DNA from: Candidatus Bathyarchaeia archaeon
Lineage (GTDB): Archaea > Thermoproteota > Bathyarchaeia > Bathyarchaeales > Bathycorpusculaceae
Length of the DNA: 32,812 nucleotides
Direction of reading: 5' to 3'
NCBI GenBank assembly: GCA_049969855.1
Contig: JBMFOB010000014.1
Coordinates: 1-32,812 of the forward strand
Position numbers and translations under genes: made by a program. Position 1 is the stretch's first letter. Every line of letters starts with the position of its first letter. Shown here one piece after another: positions 8,668-32,812 of the stretch. The notes beneath the pieces were generated by a model, which ran no database searches, was not told where the DNA came from, and saw nothing but the letters and a program-made list of their open reading frames with translations.

Positions 8668-10422
8668 TCATTGTGTAATTTTTGTCTCTGCTTTTTTGCG
8701 TTCTTCTTCTTGAAGAACCCTTCTTAAGACTTTGCCAACCATTGTCATGGGCAATTCTTTGCGGAACTCCACTTCCCTTATTGCCTTGTAAGGCGCCACC
8801 TTCTCATTCACGAAATCCATTATTTCCTTCTCCGTCGCCGTCATCCCTTCCTTCAAAACAACAAAAGCCTTTGGAATCTCACCCGCAACAGGGTCTGGTT
8901 TGCCTATAACTCCGCAAAGTTTCACGGCTGGATGCTCATATAGAACATCTTCCAATTCTCTTGGGTAAACGCTGTAGCCCTTATATTTTATTAGGTCTTT
9001 TTTGCGGTCTGTAATGTAAAAGTAGCCGTCCTCATCCATTTTTCCAATGTCACCAGTGTAAAGCCAACCACCCCTCAAAACTTGAGCTGTTTCTTCAAGC
9101 ATTTTCCAATAACCTTTCATGACTTGTGGTCCTTTTACAACAAGTTCGCCTGTTTCGCCTGGCGCAAGTTCCTTTTCGCCTGTTTCAGCATCCATTATTT
9201 TTGCGTCTGTGTCAGGCCAAGGTATGCCTATTGAGCCAACTTTAACGGTTTTCATTGACTTGTCCAGTGGGTTGCAGTGGGTTACAGGTGAGGATTCTGT
9301 TAAGCCATAACCTTCCACAAGGACGCCGCCGATCACTTCCATGAACTTTTTCTGAATTTCCGGCGGAAGTGGCGCAGAACCAGATATGCAGAAACGCACT
9401 GATGTGCAGTCGTATTTGCCAAGGTCTGGATGGGCTAAAAGCATTGCGTACATTGTTGGTGCTCCACAGAAAACTGTAACCTTATACTTTTGTATGGCTT
9501 GGAAGGTGCTTACGGCGTCAAAGCGTGGAAGTAAAACAATTCTCCCACCTATGTATATGGGGGCGTTCATGCCTGTTGTCATGCCGTAAATGTGAAAGAG
9601 CGGCAACACTGCCAAAAAGGTTTCTTCACCTTCCATCACATCCTTAAGCCAAGCCTTGCACATTATGGCATTTGAAACCAAATTCATATGCGTTAACATA
9701 GCGCCCTTCGATGTTCCAGTGGTTCCACCAGTGTACTGCAGCGCCACCAAATCCTCTCGGGGGTTTATCTCCACCTTCGGCGGGTTTGGAGGATACTTAT
9801 CCACAAGTTCTTTAAAGAAGTAAACGTTAGGTTTGCGTTCAACTTTTTGGGATGGAATCTTTTTCAACAAAGAACCTAAGAAAGCTGTGGCCCCGGGCAT
9901 GTAATCTTTCAAGCTTGCCACAATCACTCTTTGTAGTTTTGTTTTCTGCCAAACTTTCTCCACTATGGGATAGAGCAAGTCTAAAACAACTATAGTTTCG
10001 GCTTCAGAATCGTTAAGTTGATGTTCCACTTCCCGCTCTTTATATAGCGGACTTATGGCTGTTACAATGGCTCCTGTTTTTGTAGCGCCATAATATGCCA
10101 TTATGAATTGAGGAATGTTAGGCAAGAAAATGGCAACTTTATCGCCCTTTTTCACGCCGAAATCTGTGAGGGCTGCTGCGAACTTGTCTGTAAGTGTGTC
10201 CAGTTCCTTATAGGTGATTTTTCTATCAAAATAGATTATTGCTGTTTTGTCGGGATATTTTCCCGCGGTGTCTTTCAGAAATTGGAAGAGTGGAGTTTCG
10301 GGATAATCTATGTGTTTAGGAACGCCTTCAGGCCAAAACTTGTACCATGGTTTTTCGAGCGCTTCCTCCTTCTTTTCAATTTTTTCTTCCTTTAATTTTT
10401 TCTTTCTAGGACACATTACCAA
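8668..10422 (-). CDS. fadD: AMP-forming long-chain acyl-CoA ligase (FadD-like)
   Basis: YTGGTTGTSKG P-loop, LPLFHIYG, EGYGLTE, TGDIG, DRKKD, and the A10 motif LPMTMVGKVLRR. Exact start uncertain. Confidence 0.93.
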   Translation of the reverse strand: MVMCPRKKKLKEEKIEKKEEALEKPWYKFWPEGVPKHIDYPETPLFQFLKDTAGKYPDKTAIIYFDRKITYKELDTLTDKFAAALTDFGVKKGDKVAIFLPNIPQFIMAYYGATKTGAIVTAISPLYKEREVEHQLNDSEAETIVVLDLLYPIVEKVWQKTKLQRVIVASLKDYMPGATAFLGSLLKKIPSQKVERKPNVYFFKELVDKYPPNPPKVEINPREDLVALQYTGGTTGTSKGAMLTHMNLVSNAIMCKAWLKDVMEGEETFLAVLPLFHIYGMTTGMNAPIYIGGRIVLLPRFDAVSTFQAIQKYKVTVFCGAPTMYAMLLAHPDLGKYDCTSVRFCISGSAPLPPEIQKKFMEVIGGVLVEGYGLTESSPVTHCNPLDKSMKTVKVGSIGIPWPDTDAKIMDAETGEKELAPGETGELVVKGPQVMKGYWKMLEETAQVLRGGWLYTGDIGKMDEDGYFYITDRKKDLIKYKGYSVYPRELEDVLYEHPAVKLCGVIGKPDPVAGEIPKAFVVLKEGMTATEKEIMDFVNEKVAPYKAIREVEFRKELPMTMVGKVLRRVLQEEERKKAETKITQ

Positions 10423-10482
10423 CCCTAATCTTAAATATTAGAGATGATGGGGTAATAATACTTTCTACAATGGGGTCAACCT

Positions 10483-11352
10483 TTGAAGACAGAAATGGTT
10501 TGGATTAACTGTGAAAACTTGCGACTTTATGGCGAACTGCACATTCCAGACCATGTTCCAGCACCAGCCTTACTCATCTGCCACGGCATGAACGCCCACG
10601 GCTTTCACACCATCAAAATTTATCAAAAATTAGCAAAAAAGGCATGCGAAAACGGTTTTGTCACGTTGCTCTTCGACTTTAGAGGAGTTGGAAAAAGCCT
10701 TGGAAATTTTGACTATGGCTTTGGCGAACAAAAAGACGTCAAATGTGCCATCAACTATTTAGCCTCAAGGACGGAGGTTATTTCTGACAAGATTTTTGTT
10801 TTAGGTCACAGTTTAGGCGGAGCAGTTTCGCTTTATTCTGTCCAAAATGATAATCGCATTAAAGGGCTTATTTTGTGGTCAACGCCAAACAACCATGATT
10901 ACAATGTTAAAAAATTCATTACCCGCACAAGGGGAAAAAGCGGCTTATATTGGTTCCTGCTTTTCTCTTGGATTGATAAGCTCTTTGACACTTCAAAATT
11001 GTTTAAACTGGAAGTTTTTGGAATAAAGTTACGCCCAAAAAATGTTAGAGAGAAACTCATGAAGCTCAATGAATGTGAGGCTGTAACAAAACTAGGCGCT
11101 ATTCCACTGTTGGTTGTGATAGGTGATGCTGACGTTCTTGTGGGCGTTGAAGAAGCCCGCCAAGTTTTCGAGTTGGCAAAAGAGCCAAAAACTTTCTTGA
11201 TAATTGATGGCGGTGACCACATTTATGGTGGAAAAGAAGAGACGGTTATAACTGAAACTTTGAATTGGATAAAAAGTGGAAATAAAATTGCTATGGCGGA
11301 ACAAACTCGTATGTGGCGTAGCCTTCAGGTGAAATCTTTGCCACAAGCTTAA
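10483..11352 (+). CDS. Alpha/beta-fold serine hydrolase (esterase/lipase-like); the natural end is probably near 11285
   Basis: CHG oxyanion motif, FDFRGVGKS, nucleophile GHSLG, Asp in GDADVLV and His in GGDH. Confidence 0.88.
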   Translation: MKTEMVWINCENLRLYGELHIPDHVPAPALLICHGMNAHGFHTIKIYQKLAKKACENGFVTLLFDFRGVGKSLGNFDYGFGEQKDVKCAINYLASRTEVISDKIFVLGHSLGGAVSLYSVQNDNRIKGLILWSTPNNHDYNVKKFITRTRGKSGLYWFLLFSWIDKLFDTSKLFKLEVFGIKLRPKNVREKLMKLNECEAVTKLGAIPLLVVIGDADVLVGVEEARQVFELAKEPKTFLIIDGGDHIYGGKEETVITETLNWIKSGNKIAMAEQTRMWRSLQVKSLPQA

Positions 11353-11728
11353 CTTTCATTCCAACGCTAATTTGTGACAATTTAAAGCCTGTCAGCCACG
11401 CTAGAACTCGCACGCCTTCTTTAAGTTTGCCAATTGCCACAGTGTAAGGCTTATATTGCTGAAACGTTGTGGGTCTGACAACAACATGCGTGAAAGTTTC
11501 AATTTCTGCTTCGCTGCTTAGTTCAATCCAATCCATTTCCGAAGATAAACATTCTGGGCAGTCAGCCGATGGTGGAAAGTACACTTTTCCACATTTTTTG
11601 CATTTTGTTGCGTAAACTTTCCCTTCTTTCAAGCCTTCCCAAAACTTTAACGTCTTGCTTATTGGTATTTCCTGAACGATTTTTATTTCTCTGGATTTTA
11701 TTGTTGGCATACTTGACATATCCATCAT
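11291..11728 (-). CDS. DUF35 zinc-ribbon/OB-fold acyl-CoA-binding protein (thiolase partner)
   Basis: FWEGLKEGK..CKKCGKVYFPP..CPEC followed by an OB fold; start overlaps the thiolase stop. Confidence 0.92.
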   Translation of the reverse strand: MMDMSSMPTIKSREIKIVQEIPISKTLKFWEGLKEGKVYATKCKKCGKVYFPPSADCPECLSSEMDWIELSSEAEIETFTHVVVRPTTFQQYKPYTVAIGKLKEGVRVLAWLTGFKLSQISVGMKVKLVAKISPEGYATYEFVPP

Positions 11729-12897
11729 CTCCTCAATATGGTAACATAACAGTAATGCCCAGTTCCGCCCACGTTATGAGCTAAGCCTATGTAATTTTTC
11801 AGCGGAACTTGCCTTCCTCTTTCCACAGCTTCTTCACGAAGTTGTTTTGTAACTTCGTAAATCATGGAGCAACCAGTCGTGCCAATGGGATGCCCCTTAG
11901 CTTTTAAGCCGCCATCAATGTTCACTGGAATTTTTCCGCCAATTTCCGTCTGTCCCTCACGGATGAGTTTTGCGCCTTCACCTTTGCTGCAAAATCCCAA
12001 ATCCTCGTAAGCCATTATCTCTGCTATTGTAAAACAGTCGTGAACATCTGCGAAGTCAACTTGCTCTGGAGTGATTCCAGCCATTTTATATGCCATTTTG
12101 GCTGCGTGCACGCTGGCTTCTAAACCCACATAATCCAATCTTTTGCTCAGATTTGCCGTTCCAGAGGAATAGCCGATTCCCGCAACCCAAACTGGAGTGT
12201 CTATGCCTAACTCTTTGACTTTTTCTTCTGAAGCCAAAATTACAGCTGCGGAACCATCTGTCATTGGGCAACAGTCAAAAAGTTTCAATGGTGAGGCTAT
12301 AACCATTGAAGATAAAACATCGTCAACTGTTATTCTGTTCTGAAGGTGCGCTAAGGGATTCATGGAGCCATACTTATGATTTTTCACAGCCACCAAAGCC
12401 AAATCTTCCTCAGTAGTTCCAAACTTTGCCATATGAGCAGTGGCATGCAAAGCATAATAGGCTGGAAAAGTTGGTCCGAAATTGTGAAATTCCCATAGGT
12501 AATATCCTGCTCTCCCAATCCATTCCATAGCAGTTGGAGTGTCAATTTCCCTCATTTTCTCAACGCCTAAAGCCATGGCAATTTCTGCTTGCCCACTTGC
12601 AATTGTGGAGTAAGCTGCTTGAAAGGCTGCGCTACTGCTTGCACATGCTGCCTCACATCGAACCAAACCCGCCTTTGTGAGACCGCAATATTCAGCCGCT
12701 ACAACCGCTGGAAGCAGCTCTTCATACCAAGCTCCAGCCCCTGTGGTTCCTACAGCCACGAATTCCACATCTTTTGCGGTTATTCCAGCATCCTCCAGCG
12801 AAGGCTTCACAGCCTCAAAAGCTAATTCTGACACGTTCACGTCGCTTCTGTTTCCGAATTTAGAGTTGCCAACTCCTATTACAGCTACTTTTCTCAT
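11725..12897 (-). CDS. Archaeal/SCP2-type acyl-CoA thiolase (start ATG 12897)
   Basis: EAACASS (catalytic Cys), GVEKM, HDCF, GHPIGTTG and HNVGG. Confidence 0.93.
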   Translation of the reverse strand: MRKVAVIGVGNSKFGNRSDVNVSELAFEAVKPSLEDAGITAKDVEFVAVGTTGAGAWYEELLPAVVAAEYCGLTKAGLVRCEAACASSSAAFQAAYSTIASGQAEIAMALGVEKMREIDTPTAMEWIGRAGYYLWEFHNFGPTFPAYYALHATAHMAKFGTTEEDLALVAVKNHKYGSMNPLAHLQNRITVDDVLSSMVIASPLKLFDCCPMTDGSAAVILASEEKVKELGIDTPVWVAGIGYSSGTANLSKRLDYVGLEASVHAAKMAYKMAGITPEQVDFADVHDCFTIAEIMAYEDLGFCSKGEGAKLIREGQTEIGGKIPVNIDGGLKAKGHPIGTTGCSMIYEVTKQLREEAVERGRQVPLKNYIGLAHNVGGTGHYCYVTILRR

Positions 12898-12962
12898 TTC
12901 AATCCCTTTCTTAGTGTGTTTAAACATAGAAAAGAGGGTTGTGTTTAGAAAAGACGGTAGGG

Positions 12963-13751
12963 TTACTTGCCTTTAAACTCGGCTTTTCTACGGGACATGA
13001 AGGCTTCTACGCCCTCTTTCAAGTCTTCTGTGGAGAATGCTAGTCCCATCAGCCCAGACTCAAGTCTTAATCCGACTTCTAATGGCACTTGTGTTCCAAA
13101 GTTTAGGGCATGCTTTGCATATTTCATGGCTATCGGCGGACCTTCAGCAAGCTTGGTTGCCAGTGTTCGCGCTTCTTCTCTGAGCTTTTCGTAGTGCACA
13201 ACTTTATGGACAAGCCCTATCCTTAAGGCTTCTTCAGCTTTCACTCTGCCTCCAAGCATAACCATCTCCTTCGCCCTTGCCAAACCTACAATGCGCACAA
13301 GCCTTTGAGTTCCGCCCCATCCGGGAATCAAACCTAAGCCTATCTCTGGGCTTCCAAGCTCTGCATGTTCAGCTGCTATCCTAAAGTCGCATGCTAGGGC
13401 TAGCTCTAAGCCGCCTCCGAGGGCGAATCCGTTTATTGCAGCTATGACTGGTTTGGACATTTCTTCTATTTTGCCGAAAACTTTCTGTCCAGACCTTGAG
13501 AATTCCTCAGCCTTTGTTGGTGTAGCCTTTGGAAACATTGTCACGTCTGCGCCGGCGCTGAAGGCTCTGTCGCCTTCACCAGTTATTATTAAACATCTTA
13601 TTGATGGGTCTTTTTCAGCCATGTCTAAGGCGTCTGCAAGTTCTTCCATTAGAACATCGTTAAAGGCGTTTAATCTATGGGCTCTGTTTAGTATTATCCA
13701 CAATAGACTTTGTTCTCTTTCAATTTTTATTGTTTCATACGCTTTACTCAA
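12963..13751 (-). CDS. Enoyl-CoA hydratase (crotonase)
   Basis: AFSAGADV, GGGLELALACD and PEIGLGLIPGWGG, with both catalytic Glu present. Confidence 0.94.
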   Translation of the reverse strand: MSKAYETIKIEREQSLLWIILNRAHRLNAFNDVLMEELADALDMAEKDPSIRCLIITGEGDRAFSAGADVTMFPKATPTKAEEFSRSGQKVFGKIEEMSKPVIAAINGFALGGGLELALACDFRIAAEHAELGSPEIGLGLIPGWGGTQRLVRIVGLARAKEMVMLGGRVKAEEALRIGLVHKVVHYEKLREEARTLATKLAEGPPIAMKYAKHALNFGTQVPLEVGLRLESGLMGLAFSTEDLKEGVEAFMSRRKAEFKGK

Positions 13752-13807: not shown

Positions 13808-14962
13808 TTAATACTTTCTCAACAAATACTTTAGAACTGTCAGCTTCTGGATTTCGCTTGTTCCCTCGTAAATTTCAGTTATCTTTGCATCCCTATGATA
13901 CCTTTCAACCCGGTAATCGCCTAAATAACCATATCCACCAAGCGTTTGAATTGCAAAGTCCGTAACTTCCATGGCTACGCGACCAGCATAGTGTTTTGCC
14001 ATGGCTGTTGCCATTGGGTCTAATTTTCCAACATCCGCAAGCCAAGCTGCTCTGTAAGTGAGCCATCTCGCAGCCTCAATTTTTGTCATGGCTTCAGCTA
14101 ATCCGCAGCCTATTAGTTCGTGTTGGAGTATGGGCTGTCCGAAGGCTTCCCTTTGTTTGGAGTATTTGAAGGCTATTTCCCATGCTCCTTGTGCCATGCC
14201 AACTGCTTGGGCTGCCACACCCACGCGGGTTTTGTCGAAGAACTCCATGGAGCTGTAGAAGCCTCTGTTTAGTTCGCCGACAATGTTCCAGTCTGTCACT
14301 TTGACATTGTTGAAAACGACTTCTCCTGTTACTGAACATCTTATTCCCATTTTGTTATGAAGTTTTGTTGTTTCAAGTCCAGGCGTGCCTTTTTCTACAA
14401 CAAAGAGGGTTTCGCCTCTGTAGGTTGGTCTAACTTTCGTGTCTGTCTGCGTTAGAACAACTATGAAGTCGGCGAGAGTGGCGTTTGTTATGAAGGTTTT
14501 TGTGCCATTTATCCACCACTCGTTTCCATATTTTGTGGCCGTCGTCTCCATACGTGTTATGTCGCTTCCGCTAACGTTTGGCTCAGTAAAAGCTGCGGCT
14601 GACATTGTTTCACCTTTGCATATGGATGGAAGATACTTTTCCTTCTGCTCTTTTGACCCATAAGCCAAGAGAAGTTCGCTTCCAAAGTTTCCGCTGGAAA
14701 CAGCAACGCCAAGCGAAGAATCAGCCCTACACATTTCTTCAATAACCAAGCATGTCTCCAGCAAACCGCATCCTTGTCCGCCGTACTCCTGTGGGAAAAA
14801 CATGCTTGTGAAACCAAGCTTTGCAGCTTTCCTATAAAGCTCCAGTGGAAACTCCTCTTTCTTATCCAGTTCCAAGGCAAGTTCTGGCTTAAACTCTTTA
14901 TCGCAGAACTCTTTGACGGCGTTTTTTATTGCCAACTGCTCTTCTGTCAACTCAAACTTCAT
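13808..14962 (-). CDS. Acyl-CoA dehydrogenase, paralog 2 (start ATG 14962)
   Basis: FTEPNVSGSD, NGTKTFITN, GGYGY and IYEGTSEIQK (catalytic Glu). The ATG overlaps the upstream TGA (TGATG). Confidence 0.95.
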   Translation of the reverse strand: MKFELTEEQLAIKNAVKEFCDKEFKPELALELDKKEEFPLELYRKAAKLGFTSMFFPQEYGGQGCGLLETCLVIEEMCRADSSLGVAVSSGNFGSELLLAYGSKEQKEKYLPSICKGETMSAAAFTEPNVSGSDITRMETTATKYGNEWWINGTKTFITNATLADFIVVLTQTDTKVRPTYRGETLFVVEKGTPGLETTKLHNKMGIRCSVTGEVVFNNVKVTDWNIVGELNRGFYSSMEFFDKTRVGVAAQAVGMAQGAWEIAFKYSKQREAFGQPILQHELIGCGLAEAMTKIEAARWLTYRAAWLADVGKLDPMATAMAKHYAGRVAMEVTDFAIQTLGGYGYLGDYRVERYHRDAKITEIYEGTSEIQKLTVLKYLLRKY

Positions 14963-16149
14963 CAGTAGAACCCCCTTCCAGCTTTTTTGCCAGTCCACCC
15001 TTTGCTGACGTATTCTTCCAAAAGGGGACATGGCTTATAAAGTTCCATATTATATTTTGCGTACAATTCCTTAAGCCTATTAAGCACAGTGTCCAAGCCA
15101 GTTCTGTCCGCATACTCGCAAGGTCCAGAAGGCCAATAGGTTCCCAACTTCATTCCAGTGTCAATGTCTGCCGGATTTGCAGCATCATCATGGATAAGCC
15201 AAGCTGCTTCATTAATAGCTACAGCCCATGACCTTTCAACGTCATATTCCTCAAGCAAGTTAAACGGTATCCTTGGTCTTCCCTTAGTCCAATCATAGAA
15301 GCCTACGCCTGTTTTTTGTCCAAGTTTGCCTCCTTTCACTAAGGGTTCTATCACTTCTGCGCAGGGTTTCATTCTTTCTCCATAAGCCTCATACAAGATT
15401 TTGCCAACTTCGTAAGCTATGTCTAAGCCGACGAAATCTGCCAGTTCAAACCAGCCCATTGGAAAGCCGCCGCTGTATTTTACGGATGCGTCTATTCCCT
15501 CTTTTGTGGTTTCTCCTCTGTGGTAAGCCCAGAAAGCCTCGTTGAAAACTGCTCCCAATATTCTGTTCACTATAAAGCCCCTTACGTCTTTTCGCACTAC
15601 TATTGGCGTTTTTCCAAGTTTTTTGGCAAGCTCCGCAAGCATGTTTATGGTTTCTTGGCTTGTGCTTTCGCCTTTTATAACTTCAACCAAAGCCATCAGC
15701 TGGGGTGGGTTGAAGAAGTGCATTCCAGCCACTTTGTCTGGGCGTTTTGTTGCTTTTCCCATTTCTGTTATGCTTAATGTTGAAGTGTTTGATGCAAATA
15801 TGGCATGAGAAGGAGCCAACTGGTCGAGGGTGGCGAAAACCTTCTTTTTTATTTCAATGCTTTCCAAAACTGCTTCTATTGCTAGGTCTATGTCTTTTGC
15901 TGCTTGCTCATAACTTGTTGTCGTAGTTATCCGCGCTAAAGTGGCTGCCGCATCCTCCGCCCTTATTCGCTTCTTCTCCACAAATTTGTCGAGGCTCCAT
16001 TTAATTTTCTCCTTCCCCTTTTGAAGTAGTTCGTCGCTTATGTCCACCATTGCAACTTCATAGCCAGCCATTGCCAAAAGTTGAGCTATTCCATGACCCA
16101 TTGCTCCAGAACCTATAACTGCCGCTTTTTTCAAATTTCCAATTGCCAC
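14962..16149 (-). CDS. 3-hydroxyacyl-CoA dehydrogenase with a duplicated C-terminal domain
   Basis: GSGAMGHG NAD-binding motif, ASNTS, GMHFFNP, GFIVNRI, and two C-terminal repeats ending GQKTGVGFY and GKKAGRGFY. Confidence 0.95.
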   Translation of the reverse strand: MAIGNLKKAAVIGSGAMGHGIAQLLAMAGYEVAMVDISDELLQKGKEKIKWSLDKFVEKKRIRAEDAAATLARITTTTSYEQAAKDIDLAIEAVLESIEIKKKVFATLDQLAPSHAIFASNTSTLSITEMGKATKRPDKVAGMHFFNPPQLMALVEVIKGESTSQETINMLAELAKKLGKTPIVVRKDVRGFIVNRILGAVFNEAFWAYHRGETTKEGIDASVKYSGGFPMGWFELADFVGLDIAYEVGKILYEAYGERMKPCAEVIEPLVKGGKLGQKTGVGFYDWTKGRPRIPFNLLEEYDVERSWAVAINEAAWLIHDDAANPADIDTGMKLGTYWPSGPCEYADRTGLDTVLNRLKELYAKYNMELYKPCPLLEEYVSKGWTGKKAGRGFY

Positions 16150-17428: not shown

Positions 17429-17457
17429 TTTCGGTTTTCCCCTTTAAGGTTTAGAGT

Positions 17458-19236: not shown

Positions 19237-19283
19237 TTCGCTTTACTCTCCATTAGACTTGAGTTTTGATTACACTCGCATTT

Positions 19284-19305
19284 CATATAATTTTTGCTTG
19301 CAAAA
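19284..19305 (-). promoter_or_regulatory. Putative TATA/BRE of the etfB-etfA-acyl-CoA dehydrogenase operon, with an overlapping palindrome
   Basis: Minus-strand AAAAATTATATG about 50 nt upstream of the TTG; palindrome TTTTGC-TT-GCAAAA at 19292-19305. Confidence 0.45.
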
Positions 19306-19348
19306 CACCTTTCCTGATCATTCAAATAGCCATAAAAACCTTGATAGC

Positions 19349-19372: not shown

Positions 19373-19379
19373 TATTGGT

Positions 19380-21610: not shown

Positions 21611-21618
<8 letters not shown>

Positions 21619-22840: not shown

Positions 22841-22948
22841 CTGAATCTCTCCAAAGCTCTTTTCAGTTAACGGTTTTGCTTCAAATTTGCGTTAAGCTAG
22901 AATTCATGAAAGGGGTGTTCCAGAAATATAATGATTTTGGAATAATGC

Positions 22949-23884: not shown

Positions 23885-23935
23885 GTCAAGCAACCTTTAA
23901 ACAAATAGTTTGAAATGTGTTTAAATGGATTATGC

Positions 23936-24079
23936 CTAATAATCCTCGTCTTCGTAATCCAAGTCTGCGATTTCTATTTCATAACATTCTTGGCATAGTC
24001 CATCAAAGGTTTCATATTCTTCTTTTGTGATTTTTCTGCCGCACCTTATGCACTCGTAAACTTCCTTTTTCTCATTCAT
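23936..24079 (-). CDS. 47-aa acidic Cys4 metal-binding microprotein, paralog B (not in ORF track)
   Basis: MNEKKEVYECIRCGRKITKEEYETFDGLCQECYEIEIADLDYEDEDY*; the ATG lies 1 nt after the stop of paralog A. Confidence 0.85.
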   Translation of the reverse strand: MNEKKEVYECIRCGRKITKEEYETFDGLCQECYEIEIADLDYEDEDY

Positions 24080-24080
24080 G

Positions 24081-24245
24081 TTACATGAAGTCTCCGAACA
24101 TCATTAGCGATTCTTCAGTCATCTGGTCATCCCAGCATTCCCAGCACATTCCATCATAGGCTTCATATTCTTCTCGGCTAATCTCTCGACCGCAAACTGA
24201 GCAGTAATATTTTTCTTCAGTTTCCTCTTTTTTCTGTTTTTTCAA
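24081..24245 (-). CDS. 54-aa acidic Cys4 metal-binding microprotein, paralog A (TTG start; not in ORF track)
   Basis: MKKQKKEETEEKYYCSVCGREISREEYEAYDGMCWECWDDQMTEESLMMFGDFM*; GGCGGT RBS-like motif upstream. Confidence 0.82.
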   Translation of the reverse strand: MKKQKKEETEEKYYCSVCGREISREEYEAYDGMCWECWDDQMTEESLMMFGDFM

Positions 24246-24299
24246 GTAAAACCGCCACTATTATTTACATGAGCGATGATAGCCTAAAAACGTTGTGAA

Positions 24300-25421: not shown

Positions 25422-25509
25422 TTTTTGTTGCCTTTAAGGGTAAGATTTTTAATAAGTGTTTTCCCTTCTATGAAACCAAACGCATAATGAAAACTGGAGA
25501 TTAACGCCA

Positions 25510-27879
25510 ATGGAGAAGAAAATGCCGAAAATTGGAATCTTTGTTTGTGAATGCGGCGGAAACATAGGCGATGTGGTAGACGTTAAAGCCGTTGTTGAGG
25601 CAGTTAAAAACTGGGAAGGCGTAGTCACAGCAAAATACCACAGATATTTATGCAGCAAACCAGCCCAAGAAATGATACTTGAAGCCATAAAAAAAGAAAA
25701 ACTTGACAGAGTAGTTGTTGCAAGCTGCACCCCAAGAATGCACCTGACAACTTTTCAGAACGTTCTCGAAAGGGCTGGCTTAAACCCATACATGCTGGAG
25801 TTTGTAAACATAAGAGAGCAAGATTCTTGGGTTCATGGAACCCATGGATTATCCCCAGAAGCCACAAAGAAGGCTATAAGCCTAATAAGAGGCGGATACG
25901 AGCGAAGTTTAGAGCTTGAACCCCTACAGCCTATAAGCGAAAAAGGTTCAAGAGAAATTCTCATAATAGGCGGAGGAATAGCAGGTATAACTGCAGCTCT
26001 TGAGCTTGGCTATTTAGGCTTTAAGGTTCACTTAGTGGAGAGAAAACCAAGCATAGGCGGCAACATGGCAAAGTTAACAAAAGTTTTCCCAACATTGGAC
26101 TGCGCCCAATGCATACTCACACCAAGAATGGCTGAGGTTGGAAGAAACCCAAACGTGAACTTGCTGACCTATGCGGAAGTGCAAGAGGTTAGCGGAAGAC
26201 CTGGCAATTATGCAGTTAAGGTTTTCATGAAGCCCCGCGGCGTGGATGTCGAAAAGTGCAGAAGTTGTGGTGTATGCGCAAAAGTTTGTCCTGTATCAGT
26301 TCCAGACGAATTTAATGAGGGTTTATCACAACGGAAAGCGGCTTACATAGAGTTTCCGCAAGCTGTCCCATCCGCTTACGCCATAGACTTTAAAGCATGC
26401 ACCAAATGCCGAAAATGCGAGCAACTTTGCCCAGCTAAAGCCATAAACATAGACGACCCAGGAAAAACTGTTGAGTTAAATGTTGGAGCAATAATTTTGG
26501 CTACAGGCTACGAACTTTATGATGCACATAAATTGGAAATTTATGGTTATGGCAACTATAAAGATGTTATAACAATGATGGATTTGGAAAGGCTCACTTC
26601 TGCCACTGGACCAACCGGCGGCTTCGTTAAGCGTGCCGACGGAAGTGATGTGCGTAAAATGGCGATTGTTCTATGTGCCGGTTCGAGGGATAAAAATTAC
26701 GTTCCCTATTGCAGTCGCATATGCTGCATGTACTCGCTGAAGCAAGCCTTTGTGCTTAAAAAAATGTTAGGCATAGACGTCACAATCTATTACATTGACA
26801 TAAGGGCTACGGGAAAGGGCTACGAAGACTTGTATTGGCGTGATCAGGAGGCAGGCGTCGTTTTTGTAAAGGGGAAAGTTGCTGAAATTTACAAGAACAA
26901 CGATAATGGCAAGCTTGTTGTTTTGGCTGAAGACACACTGACTGGTGAGATGCGTGAAGACGAATATGACATGGTCGCCTTAGCCACGCCCATGGTTTCA
27001 CCAGAAGGGTTAAAAGGGTTGGCTGATAAGCTGAAGGTTCCATTAGGCGAAGATGGCTTTGTCACAGAGAAGCATCCGAAACTTGACCCAGTGGATACGC
27101 TTGTTACTGGGATTTTTGCTGGAGGCTGCGCTCTAAGCCCCAAAGACGTGCGAGACACGGTTTCTGACAGTTTAGGAGCAGCTGCTAAAGCATCATTATT
27201 CCTTAAAAGCGATTACATCACCACAAGTCCAGAGAAAGCCTTTGTGATTGCTGATTTATGCAATGGCTGCAACGCGTGTGTGCCTATTTGTCCAGTGAAC
27301 GCCATAAGCATGCAAGAAAATAAAGCCAAAATCGACCCATTTCAATGCATTGGTTGCGGCGCGTGCATTCCAGTTTGTCCGCAGGAAGCTATTGATTTTA
27401 AGAATTCAACGAATAGGCAGATTATTGCTGAATTGCGGGGTGTTTTGGCTGATAAAGCGGCTGACGAAGTTAGGGTTGTAGCCTTTGTTGATAAAAATGT
27501 GGGTTATACTGGCATGGACTTTCTAGGGCTTGATCGTGCAGTTTATCCGGAAAACGTTAGAATTGTGGCTGTTCCTTCAACCGCCATTTTGGGCTTGAGG
27601 CATCTGCTAACCGCTTTTGCCTTTGGCGCCGACGGAGTTCTAGTAATTGAAGGAAGCGAAGAAATCGATGAAAAATTCACAAAGAAAAGAATAATTGACA
27701 TGACAAGAGAATTAGCCAAATACGGCGTTGAAAACATGCGAGTACGTTACAGTTACGTGCCCTTACCAGTTTACAAGAAAGCCGCTGAACTCTTCAACAT
27801 GTTCACGGACAGAATCAAAAAGTTTGGTCCTTTAGCAGAAGAAAAACGCAAAGCGATAAAACAGCAATTGAAAATATGA
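25510..27879 (+). CDS. hdrA: Heterodisulfide reductase subunit A (HdrA) fused to a degenerate MvhD-like domain
   Basis: CECGGNI, SCTPR, GGGIAG, KVFPTLDCAQCI, inserted ferredoxin, CAGSRD..YCSRICCMYSLK, C-terminal ferredoxin, then YPENVRIV..GADGV..FGPL. Confidence 0.93.
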   Translation: MEKKMPKIGIFVCECGGNIGDVVDVKAVVEAVKNWEGVVTAKYHRYLCSKPAQEMILEAIKKEKLDRVVVASCTPRMHLTTFQNVLERAGLNPYMLEFVNIREQDSWVHGTHGLSPEATKKAISLIRGGYERSLELEPLQPISEKGSREILIIGGGIAGITAALELGYLGFKVHLVERKPSIGGNMAKLTKVFPTLDCAQCILTPRMAEVGRNPNVNLLTYAEVQEVSGRPGNYAVKVFMKPRGVDVEKCRSCGVCAKVCPVSVPDEFNEGLSQRKAAYIEFPQAVPSAYAIDFKACTKCRKCEQLCPAKAINIDDPGKTVELNVGAIILATGYELYDAHKLEIYGYGNYKDVITMMDLERLTSATGPTGGFVKRADGSDVRKMAIVLCAGSRDKNYVPYCSRICCMYSLKQAFVLKKMLGIDVTIYYIDIRATGKGYEDLYWRDQEAGVVFVKGKVAEIYKNNDNGKLVVLAEDTLTGEMREDEYDMVALATPMVSPEGLKGLADKLKVPLGEDGFVTEKHPKLDPVDTLVTGIFAGGCALSPKDVRDTVSDSLGAAAKASLFLKSDYITTSPEKAFVIADLCNGCNACVPICPVNAISMQENKAKIDPFQCIGCGACIPVCPQEAIDFKNSTNRQIIAELRGVLADKAADEVRVVAFVDKNVGYTGMDFLGLDRAVYPENVRIVAVPSTAILGLRHLLTAFAFGADGVLVIEGSEEIDEKFTKKRIIDMTRELAKYGVENMRVRYSYVPLPVYKKAAELFNMFTDRIKKFGPLAEEKRKAIKQQLKI

Positions 27880-28022: not shown

Positions 28023-30827
28023 ATGGTTACATTGTATCTTGACAAAATTTTTAATCCAAAAAGCATTGCGATAATAGGCGCAAGCGATGAGGAAGGAAGC
28101 GTAGGCTATGCTTTAATGAAAAATTTTATCGATTTAGGTTTTGATGGGAAAGTTTATCCCGTTAACATTCACAAAACTGAAATTTTAGGTTTAAAAGCTT
28201 ACCAGTCCGTGGAACAAATTCCTGAACCCGTAGACCTTGCAGTTATCGCAACTCCAGCCAAAACTGTTCCGGACATTGTCGAGCAGTGCGGAAAAGCTGG
28301 AATAAAAGGTTTAATCATAATCAGCGCAGGCTTCAAGGAGGTAGGTGCAGAAGGCAAAGCCTTAGAGGATAAAATTCTTGAAATAAAAAACAAGTATGGT
28401 TTACGCATTATTGGACCCAACTGTTTAGGCATAATCCGCCCAAGCGTAAAGCTGAATGCCACATTCATTAACAAAACACCAAAATCAGGCAACATAGCGT
28501 TCATCAGCCAATCTGGAGCTTTAGGTTCGGCAATATTGGATTGGGCTATTCACGAAAACATTGGCTTCAGCAACTTCGTATCCGTGGGTTCAATGTTGGA
28601 TGTGGATTTTGGCGATTTAATAGACTATTTTGGCACTGATCCAAAAACGAGAAGCATTCTAATGTATATAGAAGGATTGACAGACGCAAGAAAATTCATG
28701 TCGGCTGCCCGCCACTTCGCAAGAACAAAACCAGTAATCGTAGTTAAGGCAGGCAAATACACTGAAAGCGCGAAAGCTGCAGCCAGCCACACTGGTTCCC
28801 TTACAGGTGAAGACGTAATTTATGATGCAGCCTTTAAACGTGCAGGAATCGTTCGCGTCGAAGAAATCTCTGACCTGTTCAACTGCGCCGAAGTTTTGGG
28901 AATGCAACCATTGCCAAAAGGTCCAAACCTTGTAATAATAACGAATGCGGGCGGACCTGGAGTTATGGCTACAGATGCCCTAATAGCCAGAGGCGGAAAA
29001 CTGGCAAAACTTAGCCCAAAAACAATGGAGTACCTCAACAGCATCTTGCCTCACTATTGGAGTAGAGGAAACCCCGTTGACATTTTGGGAGATGCCAAAG
29101 CTGACCGTTATAAGGCGGTTTTGGAAGCATGCCTTAATGATGAAAATGTGGACGGCGTCTTAATCATTTACACTGCCCAAGCTGTGGCGGAACCAGTTGA
29201 AATTGCAAAAAGCATAGTTGAAGTATGCAAGAACAGGGGTTATCAAAGCAAAACAATTCTAACCTCTTTTATGGGCACTGGGGCAGTGGAAGAGGCAAAC
29301 AGAATCTTTAACCAGAACAGCATTCCCACATATTCCACTCCAGAGCAAGCAGTTAAAACATATCTTTACATGTACCAATACAAGCGCAACCTTGAACTGC
29401 TTTATGAAACGCCTGAAGAATTGCCAGTTGATGCTGCTCCGCCAAAACGTCCCATAATGGTGATAATGAGAAATGCTGCAATGGAAAATCGTGAACTTTT
29501 AAATGAAGCAGAAGCCAAAAAATTACTTGAATATTATAACTTTCCAGTTGTAAAAACTGCAGTGGCTAAAACACCAGACGAAGCCGCAACCATAGCAATG
29601 CAAATAGGCTATCCAGTGGTTCTCAAGATTTTATCCCCCCAAATAGTTCACAAGACTGAAGCAGGCGGCGTAATTCTTGACATAAACTCTGAGGCTGAGC
29701 TTAGAAAGGCTTTTGAATGCATTATTGAAAGAGCGAAAAAGTATAACCCCAACGCTGAAATTTTAGGCGTCACAGTTCAGCCAATGGTAAAGAAGCGTGG
29801 ATATGAAATAATAATTGGTGCAAAAACAGACCCGCTCTTCGGTCCAGTAATCCTATTCGGAATGGGCGGCATAGGCGTAGAACTCTTCAAAGACTTTTCC
29901 ATAGGGCTTCCGCCGTTAAACCAGACTTTAGTTAGAAGGCTTATGGAAGAAACCAAGGTTTACCAACTTTTGAAGGGCTACAGAAATGTGCCTCCAGCTA
30001 ACCTAAAACTCCTTGAAGAGTTGATAGTTCGATTCTCCCAGCTCCTCATAGACTTCCCACAACTCAAAGAGGTTGACATCAATCCACTGCTCATAGACGA
30101 AAATGACGCAGCAATAATCGACGCTAGAATAGTTATTGATAGAGAGAAAATATTCCAGAAACTTGAGCCTCACCAACATCTAGTAATAAGTCCATATCCT
30201 AAGAAATATGAAACTCTGTGGAAAATGCGGGACGGTCGCACAGTTCTGCTTAGACCAATAAAACCTGAAGACGAACCTTTGTGGCTGGAAATGTTCAAGA
30301 ATTTCTCTGAGGAATCAATACGCTTTAGGTTCTTCCAAATAATCAAAGATACACCCCACGAAGTGCGCGTGAGATACTGCAATATTGATTATGATAGGGA
30401 AATAGCCATAGTTGCGGAACTAACCGAAAATGAACAGAGAAAAATACTCGGCGTTGTCAGAGTAAGCTTAGAACCAGACAGAAAAAGCGGCGAAATAGCC
30501 TTCATAGTTGCTGATCCATGGCAAGGCTTAGGCTTAGGCACAAAAATGGTGGATTATACAATTGAAATCTGCAAAGAAATGGGAGTTGAAACCATTTACG
30601 GCATAATGCTTCCGGACAATCATAGGGCGATAAACCTTACAAGGAAAATGGGATTTACGCTAAAATATATGGAGGATGGCACAGTTAAGGGAATTCTCAA
30701 CCTAAAAGAAGAGGAATCACCAACTCAATGTCAAAAAACGGAAAAGCTTCAAGAAGAAACGCAAAATTTGGCAACGCTTCCTGAACAAAAAGGACAGAGA
30801 GAAGAAGCTGAGGCTGTTAGCGGTTGA
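28023..30827 (+). CDS. ADP-forming acyl-CoA synthetase (alpha+beta) fused to a C-terminal GNAT domain (Pat/PatZ-type architecture)
   Basis: IIGAS, GPNCLG, SQSGA, ASHTGS (phospho-His), TNAGGPG, ATP-grasp HKTEAGGV and DINP, GNAT RFRFF..IDYDRE..WQGLGLG. Confidence 0.92.
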   Translation: MVTLYLDKIFNPKSIAIIGASDEEGSVGYALMKNFIDLGFDGKVYPVNIHKTEILGLKAYQSVEQIPEPVDLAVIATPAKTVPDIVEQCGKAGIKGLIIISAGFKEVGAEGKALEDKILEIKNKYGLRIIGPNCLGIIRPSVKLNATFINKTPKSGNIAFISQSGALGSAILDWAIHENIGFSNFVSVGSMLDVDFGDLIDYFGTDPKTRSILMYIEGLTDARKFMSAARHFARTKPVIVVKAGKYTESAKAAASHTGSLTGEDVIYDAAFKRAGIVRVEEISDLFNCAEVLGMQPLPKGPNLVIITNAGGPGVMATDALIARGGKLAKLSPKTMEYLNSILPHYWSRGNPVDILGDAKADRYKAVLEACLNDENVDGVLIIYTAQAVAEPVEIAKSIVEVCKNRGYQSKTILTSFMGTGAVEEANRIFNQNSIPTYSTPEQAVKTYLYMYQYKRNLELLYETPEELPVDAAPPKRPIMVIMRNAAMENRELLNEAEAKKLLEYYNFPVVKTAVAKTPDEAATIAMQIGYPVVLKILSPQIVHKTEAGGVILDINSEAELRKAFECIIERAKKYNPNAEILGVTVQPMVKKRGYEIIIGAKTDPLFGPVILFGMGGIGVELFKDFSIGLPPLNQTLVRRLMEETKVYQLLKGYRNVPPANLKLLEELIVRFSQLLIDFPQLKEVDINPLLIDENDAAIIDARIVIDREKIFQKLEPHQHLVISPYPKKYETLWKMRDGRTVLLRPIKPEDEPLWLEMFKNFSEESIRFRFFQIIKDTPHEVRVRYCNIDYDREIAIVAELTENEQRKILGVVRVSLEPDRKSGEIAFIVADPWQGLGLGTKMVDYTIEICKEMGVETIYGIMLPDNHRAINLTRKMGFTLKYMEDGTVKGILNLKEEESPTQCQKTEKLQEETQNLATLPEQKGQREEAEAVSG

Positions 30828-30945: not shown

Positions 30946-31884
30946 ATGGAGAAGCTAAAATTTGCCTTTTATTGGGCTGCAAGTTGTGGCGGCTGTGAAA
31001 TAGCTGTTTTAGATATAAATGAGAAAATCCTTGACGTGGTAGCAAAAGCAGACATTGTCTTCTGGCCTGTTGCCATGGACATCAAATACAAAGATGTCGA
31101 AAACATGCCAGACAAAAGCATAGACGTATGCTTCTTTAATGGCGCAATAAGAACTGAGGAAAACGAAGAAATGGCTAAACTTTTAAGGCGTAAATCAAAA
31201 GTTCTTGTGGCTTTCGGTTCATGCGCATGCGACGGATGCGTTATAGGACTTGGAAACCTATGGAATAAGCGAAAAATCTTTGAAAGGGCATACTTTGAGA
31301 CGCCTTCAACAAAAAACCCGCAGTTGGTCACTCCTCAAACCCGCCTGAAAGTCAAGGAAGGCGAACTTGAACTCCCAGATTTTTACGACACTGTCAAAAC
31401 TTTAGCTCAAACTGTTAATGTTGACTATTTCATTTCAGGTTGTCCACCACCAGTTCCAAGAATAATAGAAGCCTTAGAAGCCATAGTGAACGGAAAATTA
31501 CCTTCGAAAGGCTCAAGTTTCTTGTTGAATAAATCTGTATGCGACGAATGCCCAAGAGAGAAAAAAGACAGAAAAATCACACAAATAAAAAGAATATACG
31601 AAATAAATGACGATTTCAAAACATGCTTTCTAGACCAAGGCGTAATATGCATGGGACCAGCCACTCGAGGCGGATGTGGTGCACAGTGCCTAAAGGCAAA
31701 TGTGCCATGCACAGGATGCGGCGGACCAACGCCAAGAGTGACAGACCAAGGCGCAGCAATGGTAAGCGCCTTCGCGTCAATAGCCGCAGACCCTAAAGTC
31801 ATCGAGCAAATCGTTGACCCGGTTGGAACTTTCTACAAGTATTCTTTGGCTAATTCTATTTTGCGGAGGAAAGTGATAGAATGA
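30946..31884 (+). CDS. mvhG: Group 3c-type [NiFe] hydrogenase small subunit
   Basis: WAASCGGC, FGSCA, GCPP, CDECPR and CFLDQGVICMGPATRGGCGAQC..PCTGC. Confidence 0.88.
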   Translation: MEKLKFAFYWAASCGGCEIAVLDINEKILDVVAKADIVFWPVAMDIKYKDVENMPDKSIDVCFFNGAIRTEENEEMAKLLRRKSKVLVAFGSCACDGCVIGLGNLWNKRKIFERAYFETPSTKNPQLVTPQTRLKVKEGELELPDFYDTVKTLAQTVNVDYFISGCPPPVPRIIEALEAIVNGKLPSKGSSFLLNKSVCDECPREKKDRKITQIKRIYEINDDFKTCFLDQGVICMGPATRGGCGAQCLKANVPCTGCGGPTPRVTDQGAAMVSAFASIAADPKVIEQIVDPVGTFYKYSLANSILRRKVIE

Positions 31885-32812
31885 AGGAAATAGTCATAAA
31901 CCCAATTACAAGGCTTGAGGGACACGGAAAAATAACAATATTCCTGAATGACGCTGGAAACGTGGAAGAAGCCTATTTCCAAGTTCCAGAATTAAGAGGC
32001 TTCGAGAGATTCTGCGAAGGAAGAAGGGCTGAAGACCTACCAATAATAACAACAAGAATATGCGGCGTTTGCCCAGTTGCACACCACATGGCAGGCGCAA
32101 AAGCTTTAGATGCAGCATTCAATGTTGAGCCAACAGAAACAGCCAAAAAACTCCGCGAGCTCATGTATTGCGGCTACTTCATTTACGACCACACATTGCA
32201 CTTTTACTATTTGGGCGGACCAGACTTCGTCGTAGGACCAAACGCGCCGCCAGAAAAGCGAAACGTTTTAGGCGTCATAGAAAAAGCTGGACTTGAAATT
32301 GGTAAGGAAGTCATAAAGCACAGGGCTTACGGGCAAAAGATAACAGAGATTCTGGGCGGGAAGGCAACACATCCAGTTAGCGCTTGCATACCCGGAGGCG
32401 TTTCAAAGCCACTCTCTGAAGAGGAGCGGCGAGAAATTGAAAATATGGTGAGAAGCTGCCTTGAATTCGCAAAATTCAGCCTAAAACTCTTCGACGACAT
32501 AGTGCTGAAAAACACGGACTATGTGAATCTGATAAAAAGCGAAGCCTACACGTTGCAAACCTATTACATGGGCTTGGTTGACAAAAACAACCATGTAAAC
32601 TTCTACGACGGCGATGTGCGTGTTGTTGACCCCTATGGGAAAGAATTTGTGAAGTTCAAACCGAAAGAATACCTCGATGTGATTGAAGAGCATGTGGAAC
32701 CATGGACATACGTGAAACTGCCATACTTAAAGAAAATTGGATGGAAAGGCTTGGTTGGCGGACCGCAAAGCGGGCTTTACCGCGTTGGACCGCTTGGAAG
32801 ACTTAACGCTGC
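31881..32812 (+). CDS. mvhA: Group 3c-type [NiFe] hydrogenase large subunit, truncated at the window end (not in ORF track)
   Basis: ATGA overlap with mvhG; MKEIVINPITRLEGHGKI..RGFERFCEGR..TRICGVCPVAHH (L1 motif)..HFYYLGGPDF; the frame reads through to GPLGRLNA at the edge. Confidence 0.92.
   Translation, partial: MKEIVINPITRLEGHGKITIFLNDAGNVEEAYFQVPELRGFERFCEGRRAEDLPIITTRICGVCPVAHHMAGAKALDAAFNVEPTETAKKLRELMYCGYFIYDHTLHFYYLGGPDFVVGPNAPPEKRNVLGVIEKAGLEIGKEVIKHRAYGQKITEILGGKATHPVSACIPGGVSKPLSEEERREIENMVRSCLEFAKFSLKLFDDIVLKNTDYVNLIKSEAYTLQTYYMGLVDKNNHVNFYDGDVRVVDPYGKEFVKFKPKEYLDVIEEHVEPWTYVKLPYLKKIGWKGLVGGPQSGLYRVGPLGRLNA

Follow-up and report, generated by a model that had tools for sequence, protein, structure and literature searches.

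Bathyarchaeia are among the most abundant archaea of sediments and hot springs, and they carry several paralogues of heterodisulfide reductase (Hdr) yet make no methane, so that the role of these 'heterodisulfide reductases' is in question. A contig of Candidatus Bathyarchaeia archaeon, an uncultured inhabitant of hot springs (GenBank assembly GCA_049969855.1, contig JBMFOB010000014.1) poses this question in a concrete form: genes for HdrA and for a protein with two CCG domains, hereafter the CCG protein, are found together with genes for an electron-transferring flavoprotein (ETF), beta-oxidation enzymes, NfnAB and the hydrogenase subunits MvhG and MvhA. With which partners, then, would this HdrA exchange electrons? 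A preliminary description of the DNA had proposed that ETF electrons enter HdrA through the CCG protein and are confurcated with reduced ferredoxin to make H2, or the reverse, in an all-soluble system without HdrB and HdrC. From comparative sequence analysis we instead favour, with moderate confidence, two Hdr systems, in which HdrA and the CCG protein would form a bifurcating ETF-ferredoxin enzyme with NAD(P)H as input, and the hydrogenase would belong to a separate, canonical Mvh-HdrA'CB complex.

The HdrA/CCG pair

The window, meaning the whole stretch of DNA analysed, is an entire contig (C14, 32,812 bases) of a metagenome-assembled genome of 1.28 Mb in 49 contigs, which is rated at 93% completeness and 3.8% contamination; every absence stated below for the genome rests on this 93%-complete assembly. 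Genes were assigned with Pfam and NCBIfam profiles, and all of those that had been listed for 8668-32812 were found to be present. The question centres on two divergent genes, one of which resembles the membrane-bound ETF:(methyl)menaquinone oxidoreductase (EMO) and its relatives EtfD and BamD:

24300-25421, minus strand: CCG protein, 373 amino acids, soluble, EMO/EtfD/BamD-like; Fer4_8/Fer4_17 and two CCG domains (Pfam)
25422-25509: divergent intergenic region between the CCG gene and hdrA, about 90 bp
25510-27879, plus strand: HdrA fused to an MvhD-like domain without cysteines; NF040770, 847 bits over residues 7-776

We fetched 80 related loci with the CCG protein as query, all of them from Bathyarchaeia assemblies of hot springs and sediments, and their CCG proteins are 79-96% identical to that of the window. 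In these, hdrA and the CCG gene were found in divergent orientation at 74 of the 80 loci, or 74 of the 74 with enough flank, while the remaining six have just 291-822 bp upstream of the CCG gene. The spacer between the two genes measures 86-127 bp in 72 of these 74 relatives. Synteny across related archaeal genomes, which had been named as a check, is accordingly strict for the pair and looser for its neighbours: among the 41 loci in which the CCG gene is flanked by 9 kb or more on each side, Nfn occurs in 33, EtfBA in 23, Mvh in 14 and none of the three in 3, a linkage with the CCG gene that is far above chance. Furthermore, etfBA directly follows hdrA in 27 loci, with gaps from 20 bp, and follows nfnB in three, including the window's lineage; that the same neighbours are kept in two arrangements argues for selection on the linkage. 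In the genomes that have no ETF close by (five of five), at least two etfBA pairs are encoded at other sites, three of them within about 20-45 kb.

Residues 5-650 of HdrA align end to end with solved bifurcating HdrA subunits (E 1e-190 to 8e-168). The domain set is full, with an N-terminal four-cysteine cluster, a FAD/TrxR core with its cluster, and inserted and C-terminal 2x[4Fe-4S] ferredoxin domains, and the cluster cysteines are all present. The C-terminal 150 amino acids (27427-27876) are MvhD-like and hold no cysteine; on alignment to solved MvhD chains, every cysteine position of this tail is substituted. Among 50 of the 69 orthologues, the tail has no cysteine in 47 and a single one in 3. 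No [2Fe-2S] cluster is thus possible there, and the window HdrA cannot take electrons via its own tail, which looks like a structural relic of an adaptor domain.

Cluster ligands of the CCG protein

The best solved match of the CCG protein is M. smegmatis EtfD (9OJN, E 1.3e-56), as against 7e-18 for HdrC and 3e-7 for HdrB. A search of 1.84 billion representatives clustered at 50% identity gave 1,756 homologues at E <= 1e-30. The best 150 of these include 101 EMO/EtfD-type proteins of 600-800 amino acids, whose N-terminal extension has a median of four predicted membrane helices, together with 28 soluble proteins of 340-440 amino acids and 16 SdhB/TfrB fusions of 470-560 amino acids. The CCG protein itself shows no credible hydrophobic helix in a hydropathy scan. 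The label 'membrane-less FadF/HdrD' given to it earlier is therefore correct, as EtfD is nearest, EMO-length proteins dominate among the homologues and the membrane domain is missing.

We then compared the cluster ligands of the window protein and 50 of its 72 distinct orthologues. In all 51 sequences, the eight cubane cysteines are invariant and the second CCG motif is complete, whereas the first motif runs C145...C180-C181...C217-P-H219-X, X being Gly (46 sequences), Ala (4) or Ser (1). The first motif thus has four cysteines and His219 and is one cysteine short of a full motif. Canonical HdrB and HdrD have two complete CX(n)CCX(n)CXXC motifs with ten cysteines, an open site and no His cap, which is not the arrangement found here; EMO and EtfD combine two cubane and two CCG domains with a His cap and a replaced distal cysteine, all of which the CCG protein shares, and a five-helix heme-b membrane domain, which it lacks. 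In the available text of the respective reports, H534 of S. aciditrophicus EMO sits at the proximal cluster, in the coenzyme M site, and G535 stands at the distal cluster in place of the HdrB cysteine (10.64898/2026.08.18.745454), His583 of M. smegmatis EtfD is used likewise (PMC13083937), and BamD has a cluster with five cysteines and one His together with a degenerate distal cluster (10.64898/2026.04.10.717634). According to the same portions of these three reports, the His site is closed and non-catalytic and exchanges electrons with ETF (10.64898/2026.08.18.745454, PMC13083937, 10.64898/2026.04.10.717634). The genome's own HdrB on contig C4, in contrast, reads C-N-R-C with no His and both motifs full, and the HdrB encoded behind HdrA' in relatives has two full motifs, CTGC and CPFC. 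The PDB matches of the CCG protein included no BamD chain, and the likeness to BamD rests on its published description. When a complex of the CCG protein with EtfA and EtfB was predicted, the median score was 0.53, and the control in which EtfA was replaced scored 0.48, so that the prediction favours neither binding nor its absence.

These ligands bear on an alternative in which HdrA and the CCG protein are a soluble HdrA-HdrD-type disulfide reductase for a thiol carrier, with a thioredoxin reductase (TrxR) and small four-cysteine proteins of the same operon possibly involved, and in which the ETF and beta-oxidation genes are neighbours that exchange no electrons with the pair. HdrB/HdrD chemistry is indeed the textbook role of CCG domains, but a His, which in EMO, EtfD and BamD blocks the substrate site, is invariant here and one cysteine of the first motif is gone, unlike in both canonical HdrBs, and the protein is far nearer to EtfD than to HdrB or HdrC. 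The gene order can be read both ways: trxR comes after the CCG gene in 46 of 55 loci, with four-cysteine mini open reading frames (ORFs) between them, and ETF is missing within 10 kb in 18 of 41, whereas the recurrent order hdrA-etfBA-acyl-CoA dehydrogenase speaks for a functional link. On balance we consider a disulfide reductase improbable.

The ETF and the acyl-CoA enzymes

Fifteen co-directional minus-strand genes, with gaps of no more than 143 nt, run from the CCG gene (25421) down to a DUF35 gene (11291); beyond it lie an alpha/beta hydrolase and then an AMP-forming acyl-CoA ligase. From the CCG gene onward the order is as follows:

23936-24245, minus strand: two paralogous four-cysteine (CxxC...CxxC) mini-ORFs of 47 and 54 amino acids
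22949-23893, minus strand: NADPH-type TrxR; TIGR01292, 360 bits (cut-off 343); CGIC redox pair and HRRxxxR motif
21611-22840, minus strand: (2x[4Fe-4S] ferredoxin + MvhD)x2 protein, 409 amino acids, hereafter (Fd-MvhD)x2; frame overlaps nfnA by 32 nt
20779-21642, minus strand: NfnA; NF004862, 388.5 bits (cut-off 220); frame overlaps nfnB
19380-20807, minus strand: NfnB; TIGR01316, 650.5 bits (cut-off 471.75)
18448-19236, minus strand: EtfB (Pfam)
17458-18447, minus strand: EtfA (Pfam)
16274-17428, minus strand: acyl-CoA dehydrogenase 2 (ACAD2), 62% identical to ACAD1 (Pfam, NCBIfam)
14962-16149, minus strand: 3-hydroxyacyl(butyryl)-CoA dehydrogenase (Pfam, NCBIfam)
13808-15031, minus strand: acyl-CoA dehydrogenase 1 (ACAD1), Bcd/AcrC-like (Pfam, NCBIfam)
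12963-13751, minus strand: enoyl-CoA hydratase, short-chain type (crotonase) (Pfam, NCBIfam)
11725-12927, minus strand: thiolase (Pfam); PRK12578, 605 bits, above cut-off (NCBIfam, thiolase and DUF35 protein being listed jointly)
11291-11728, minus strand: DUF35/ChsH2-type zinc-ribbon/OB protein (Pfam)
10483-11352, plus strand: alpha/beta hydrolase (Pfam); its 3' end convergently overlaps the DUF35 gene
8668-10422, minus strand: AMP-forming (long-chain type) acyl-CoA ligase (Pfam); PRK06187, 481.6 bits (cut-off 476)

EtfB finds its best solved match in the canonical ETF of M. methylotrophus (2.5e-57), while bifurcating ETFs score 1e-41 to 7e-40. Gly123 of EtfB (A. fermentans numbering) is invariant in bifurcating ETFs, where it makes room for the second FAD (PMC12630350). 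Asp124 of the window EtfB aligns to this residue, and Asp is found in 30 of 31 sequences and Gly in one; an EtfB paralogue on C4 has Ser at the position. The window EtfB thus lacks the mark of a bifurcating, two-FAD ETF and is probably canonical, of the AMP type, so that it would need an external redox partner.

In the genome, no match was obtained for NarI/HdrE-type cytochrome b (PF02665), Rnf, MqnA or MenD, nor was any ETF-QO/FixX found; a match to PF05187 (ETF-QO/FixX) on C31, at the cut-off, was rejected as a plain 2x[4Fe-4S] ferredoxin encoded between superoxide dismutase and ribonucleotide reductase genes. The genome-wide check for quinone biosynthesis and membrane ETF oxidoreductases (MqnA, MenD, ETF-QO/FixX, NarI type) therefore came back empty, and the hydropathy scan of 8668-32812 likewise gave no convincing membrane protein, in line with the earlier statement that the window encodes no membrane redox protein.

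The two ACADs score best against models of Bcd-like acryloyl-CoA reductase (AcrC), and the hydratase and the dehydrogenase against crotonase and Hbd models (NCBIfam). These scores, together with an ATP-yielding ADP-forming acyl-CoA synthetase (ACD) encoded in the window, fit a butyrate-type reductive pathway that would feed ferredoxin to a membrane hydrogenase, while the AMP-forming ligase and the hydrolase fit catabolism. The earlier caveat that direction cannot be read from sequence still holds.

The same profile matches could be taken to mean that the modules are merely juxtaposed, the ACAD-EtfAB pair bifurcating in the manner of Bcd/EtfAB, NfnAB serving as the housekeeping transhydrogenase and Mvh-Hdr acting as the usual hydrogenase, connected solely by the pools of NAD(P)H and ferredoxin in a co-regulated island. 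Each module is known to work alone, and the N-terminus of EtfB is like that of bifurcating ETFs. However, the solved structure nearest to EtfB is that of a canonical ETF, and Asp takes the place of the Gly that is invariant in bifurcating ETFs (30 of 31 sequences); moreover, juxtaposition leaves no role for the conserved HdrA/EMO-like pair or for the (Fd-MvhD)x2 gene that overlaps nfnA. We judge this arrangement very unlikely.

The DNA of this stretch was also compared with sequencing runs. In run X1, the best DNA match of the stretch, a contig joins 17108 (in ACAD2) to 22584 (in the (Fd-MvhD)x2 gene) with 27 other letters between, which may stem from the presence of another strain with a different gene order or from chimeric assembly. 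Among the listed runs, no RNA run matched window positions 17400-27300. Runs X20 and X21, which are labelled metatranscriptomic, were rejected as evidence of expression, being flagged 'probably DNA' with contigs of up to 80-86 kb; X20, X21, X19 and X1 together cover 30 of 30 bins, mostly with relatives' contigs at 85-95% likeness, and are uninformative on transcription.

NfnAB and the double Fd-MvhD protein

Among the 55 loci whose sequence extends 6.5 kb or more beyond the CCG gene on its downstream side, TrxR is encoded in 46, (Fd-MvhD)x2 in 40, NfnA in 45 and NfnB in 44. The order CCG-trxR-(Fd-MvhD)2-nfnAB is kept in 39 of them, TrxR and NfnAB occur together in 44, and it is trxR that follows the CCG gene in the 46. 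NfnB (GltD-like, 2x[4Fe-4S] and FAD) and NfnA (FNR-like with [2Fe-2S]) both score above curated cut-offs, and the reading frames of (Fd-MvhD)2, nfnA and nfnB overlap. Unlike the tail of HdrA, the (Fd-MvhD)x2 protein keeps the MvhD cysteines in both of its domains. Since it holds the redox-active MvhD domains available to HdrA and its gene, which belongs to the CCG operon, overlaps nfnA, we propose a chain NfnAB-(Fd-MvhD)x2-HdrA-CCG-ETF-ACAD. The mini-ORFs between the CCG gene and trxR are rubredoxin- or zinc-ribbon-like with acidic tails, and four-cysteine mini-ORFs were found downstream of the CCG gene in 30 of 79 relatives.

Hydrogenase genes at the contig end

On the plus strand, hdrA is followed by three further genes, all co-directional and with gaps of no more than 143 nt, and the contig stops within the last of them:

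28023-30827, plus strand: ACD (alpha + beta) with a C-terminal GNAT domain, 934 amino acids; SHTGS histidine kept
30946-31884, plus strand: MvhG
31881-32812, plus strand: MvhA, first 310 codons, cut by the contig end

The ACD-GNAT fusion has the architecture of bacterial Pat protein acetyltransferases and accompanies mvhGA in relatives; a paralogue, 58% identical, lies on C10 (4010-6655) beside another AMP-ligase.

At the other end of the contig, Pfam placed the adjoining hyp genes that had been noted earlier (hypE/D/C/F, 1716-7433):

1716-2792, plus strand: hypE (Pfam)
3774-4862, minus strand: hypD (Pfam)
4874-5317, minus strand: hypC (Pfam)
5157-7433, minus strand: hypF (Pfam)
within 1716-7433, among the hyp genes: DUF996 membrane protein (Pfam)

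Between hypF and the acyl-CoA ligase gene, at 7511-8331 on the minus strand, are two small genes for zinc-ribbon and prokaryotic RING-finger proteins.

As stated earlier, there is no hdrB or hdrC within the window. At a 95%-related locus (L010), however, mvhA (487 amino acids) overlaps the start of a further HdrA, named HdrA', whose identity to the HdrA proteins of this assembly is about 39% at most. We fetched 80 further Bathyarchaeia loci with HdrA' as query. MvhG-MvhA stands directly upstream of HdrA' in 56 of the 59 loci with enough flank, and HdrC and HdrB stand directly downstream in 72 of 73; hence in relatives, including the nearest, mvhGA is encoded together with hdrA, hdrC and hdrB, as in a group 3c Mvh with HdrABC.

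The nearest relative, G001, shows 93% nucleotide identity to the end of C14. One of its contigs carries, in order, TfrA, TfrB and AOR; on the opposite strand HycI, MvhA2, MvhG2, HdrB2, HdrC2 and HdrA2; then a GltD-like protein and another HdrA; then HdrB', HdrC', HdrA', MvhA, MvhG, ACD-GNAT and HdrA; and finally the CCG gene. G001 encodes five CCG proteins and this assembly three, and the mvh paralogues at the C22/C14 break share 79% amino-acid identity. The gene order of G001 and the count of five versus three imply that C22 and C14 lie next to each other, with a gap between them where the paralogous mvh genes were not assembled. The absence of hdrB and hdrC is thus a contig-end artefact, because the relatives' mvhGA runs on into hdrA'-hdrC-hdrB. 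In G001 itself (contig C4, 81074-82242; L174), 263 nt separate the aligned 310-codon part of mvhA from hdrA', against about 550 nt in 56 other loci, so that its mvhA may be shortened or mis-assembled.

We weighed these results against the earlier proposal that MvhAG docks on the window HdrA, with electrons of ETF and of reduced ferredoxin confurcated to H2, or the reverse, all in soluble form and without HdrBC. Its genes are co-directional with hdrA, as described, the hyp genes adjoin, and at 14 of 41 full loci, in three arrangements, Mvh and the HdrA/CCG pair are no more than 10 kb apart. The relatives' mvhA nevertheless leads straight to its own HdrA', with a cysteine-keeping MvhD, and then to hdrC and hdrB. 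MvhD cysteines number five in HdrA', six in the HdrA of the type found on contig C23 and none in the tail of the window HdrA, which lacks cysteine at the positions used by solved MvhD chains; the (Fd-MvhD)x2 protein could in principle bridge MvhG and HdrA instead. Since HdrA' keeps these cysteines and the window HdrA tail has none, H2 probably enters via the canonical mvhGA-hdrA'-hdrC-hdrB complex. With the HdrBC gap explained by the contig end and the count of CCG proteins, docking of MvhAG on the window HdrA appears decidedly unlikely, and the H2-coupled, HdrBC-free reading is not favoured by the evidence. What survives of it is the CCG protein as an EtfD/EMO homologue that is paired with HdrA and linked to ETF; the H2 leg falls away, as Mvh has its own HdrA'CB. 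In the same way, hdrB and hdrC are indeed missing from the window, although their absence fails as a premise.

Other Hdr loci of the genome and its nearest relative

The genome-wide search for hdrB and hdrC that had been suggested turned up a canonical hdrA-hdrC-hdrB set on C4. At C4 34750-47000 (L007 6751-18846), the order hdrA (660 amino acids, no MvhD)-hdrC-hdrB-ACAD is convergent with etfBA, beyond which lie a DAO-type flavoprotein, the alpha, beta and gamma subunits of a 2-oxoacid:ferredoxin oxidoreductase and a PLP enzyme. This locus looks like an amino-acid branch using canonical HdrBC, and it again joins Hdr with ACAD and ETF.

C23 254-17693 (L089) encodes NuoJ/I/H and a fused NuoCD-like [NiFe] large subunit, a group-4 hydrogenase or complex-I-like module that is the only membrane redox complex found in the genome. 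C23 also carries a ferredoxin-GltD-like protein, a third HdrA::MvhD (40% identical) and another 2-oxoacid:ferredoxin oxidoreductase. No McrA or CdhC match was obtained in the genome.

On C22 (12407-20743; L008), genes for TfrA/SdhA, a 521-amino-acid TfrB-like CCG protein, an AOR-family protein and an Fe-S protein are convergent with hycI-mvhA2-mvhG2. In G001 (contig C4, 50000-89000; L173, L174), the block from TfrA to mvhG2 lies about 15 kb from the counterpart of the window's mvhA, within an Hdr-rich island that has at least four HdrA paralogues in 40 kb; the present assembly breaks at both mvh paralogues. A reading of the island as a class II benzoyl-CoA reductase was dropped, the AOR-family and Fe-S genes standing beside TfrAB-like genes on C22, outside the window.

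Discussion

The region is probably one arm of a larger redox island of Bathyarchaeia. In the first of the two systems that we propose, HdrA and the soluble CCG protein would together make a membrane-free enzyme of flavin-based bifurcation or confurcation. Its high-potential arm would lead from the CCG protein to the canonical ETF, the two Bcd-like ACADs and the acyl-CoA/enoyl-CoA couple, and its low-potential arm to ferredoxin via the inserted ferredoxin domain of HdrA. The mid-potential partner would most likely be NAD(P)H, with NfnAB as its point of entry and the (Fd-MvhD)x2 protein as the link to HdrA. The net reaction would then resemble that of Bcd-EtfAB and be reversible: 2 NAD(P)H + Fd(ox) + enoyl-CoA <-> 2 NAD(P)+ + Fd(red) + acyl-CoA. 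NAD(P)H (about -320 mV) can reduce ferredoxin (about -450 to -500 mV) if the second electron goes to ETF/enoyl-CoA (about 0 mV), and in the reverse direction acyl-CoA oxidation would be pulled by co-oxidation of reduced ferredoxin. In the second system, MvhGA would be the head of a canonical mvhG-mvhA-hdrA'(::mvhD)-hdrC-hdrB operon that continues past the contig end, and the two systems would be linked solely by shared ferredoxin and their co-location.

Several observations count against this assignment. The x-P-H-x signature is also present in TfrB/SdhB-fused homologues, including the genome's own (S-P-H-C, four cysteines), so that it marks a type of electron-transfer domain and not by itself ETF specificity. 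The call of a canonical ETF rests on one diagnostic residue and the ranking of best matches, and the N-terminus of EtfB (VKHVPETAE) resembles bifurcating ETFs. NfnAB is the only canonical Nfn in the genome and a self-sufficient transhydrogenase, and its position may therefore reflect co-regulation only. TrxR and the two four-cysteine mini-proteins of the same operon could point to thiol chemistry, and ETF is not within 10 kb in 18 of the 41 full loci. In addition, the relatives sampled are all Bathyarchaeia and hence not independent.

A more tightly integrated version, in which NfnAB and HdrA are hard-wired via the double Fd-MvhD protein and, with the membrane-less EMO, form one soluble machine that sets acyl-CoA/enoyl-CoA against ferredoxin without quinones, is a speculative extension that we hold to be unlikely. 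If true, it would amount to a butyrate-type, ferredoxin-generating fermentation without a bifurcating ETF, or to a membrane-independent answer to syntrophic acyl-CoA oxidation. Mvh-HdrA'CB would then supply or remove H2, possibly via HdrA/HdrA' heterodimers like the fused double HdrA of BamE; such heterodimers, if real, would restore the H2 link of the preliminary description in another form.

Two known systems come closest, namely the membrane EMO/EtfD and the BamDEF-ETF branch of class II benzoyl-CoA reductase. As a 2026 preprint reports from cryo-electron tomography and an assay, the HdrA-like BamE of the Geobacter metallireducens class II benzoyl-CoA reductase sends the high-potential electron via soluble BamD to ETF (10.64898/2026.04.10.717634). 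The likeness lies in the electron route, which leads from an HdrA-type flavoprotein through a soluble HdrD-like protein to a canonical ETF, in the make-up of the HdrD-like protein, which has cubane and non-cubane clusters (two of each), a ligand His and a distal cluster that is degenerate, and in an MvhD-like adaptor that joins a second NAD(P)H/ferredoxin module to HdrA; the chain proposed here would parallel BamGHI-BamF-BamE-BamD-ETF, with two coupled bifurcation modules. In contrast to Bam, the window has no tungsten BamBC output, so that the low-potential acceptor is presumably free ferredoxin, NfnAB and the double Fd-MvhD protein would serve as input in place of BamGHI/BamF, and the HdrA is a single unit where that of Bam is a fused dimer. 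The host also differs in being archaeal and quinone-free, and without quinones the ETF has no EMO to hand electrons to. With EMO/EtfD, the CCG protein shares homologous cubane and non-cubane cluster domains (E 1.3e-56 to 9OJN) and C-P-H-G as in SaEMO (H534-G535), whereas it lacks the five-helix heme-b membrane domain and is paired with HdrA and not with the quinone pool.

With regard to MvhAGD-HdrABC of methanogens (5ODC and related), the solved HdrA aligns end to end with residues 5-650 of the window HdrA, at E values of 1e-190 to 6e-174, and the relatives' mvhGA-hdrA'-hdrC-hdrB is of this canonical kind, with MvhD fused to HdrA'. The window HdrA differs in that it partners a fused, His-capped HdrCB-like protein and has an MvhD-like tail without cluster ligands, and the organism has no McrA. 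Clostridial Bcd-EtfAB (5OL2, 4KPU) is alike in the proposed net reaction and in gene context (thiolase, Hbd, crotonase, Bcd-like ACAD, EtfBA), but bifurcation would here sit on the FAD of HdrA and not on a second EtfB FAD, the window EtfB being without the invariant Gly. FlxABCD-HdrABC of Desulfovibrio has an MvhD-like protein as the link between HdrA and a module that oxidises NAD(P)H, as we propose for the present system. It differs in its canonical HdrBC and disulfide substrate and in having no ETF and no Nfn. The literature covered by a full-text search, in the portions available (including PMC9723716, PMC7382037, PMC3949148 and 10.1101/763623), describes no HdrA/soluble-EMO/ETF module in Bathyarchaeia or other archaea; supplementary tables, which could list such genes, lie outside this scope.

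The corrected gene map traces the 'missing HdrBC' to an assembly break at paralogous mvh genes, and it advises caution on absences at contig ends. If the proposed soluble HdrA/EMO-like/ETF enzyme is real, it would give the Hdr of Bathyarchaeia a concrete substrate, ETF, and hence acyl-CoA chemistry. The wiring from HdrA to ETF, only just discovered in class II benzoyl-CoA reductase, would thereby be seen in nature for a second time. Syntrophs accomplish the hardest step of fatty-acid oxidation by the reverse redox loop of the membrane EMO, and the soluble enzyme would be an alternative to this loop that needs no quinone.

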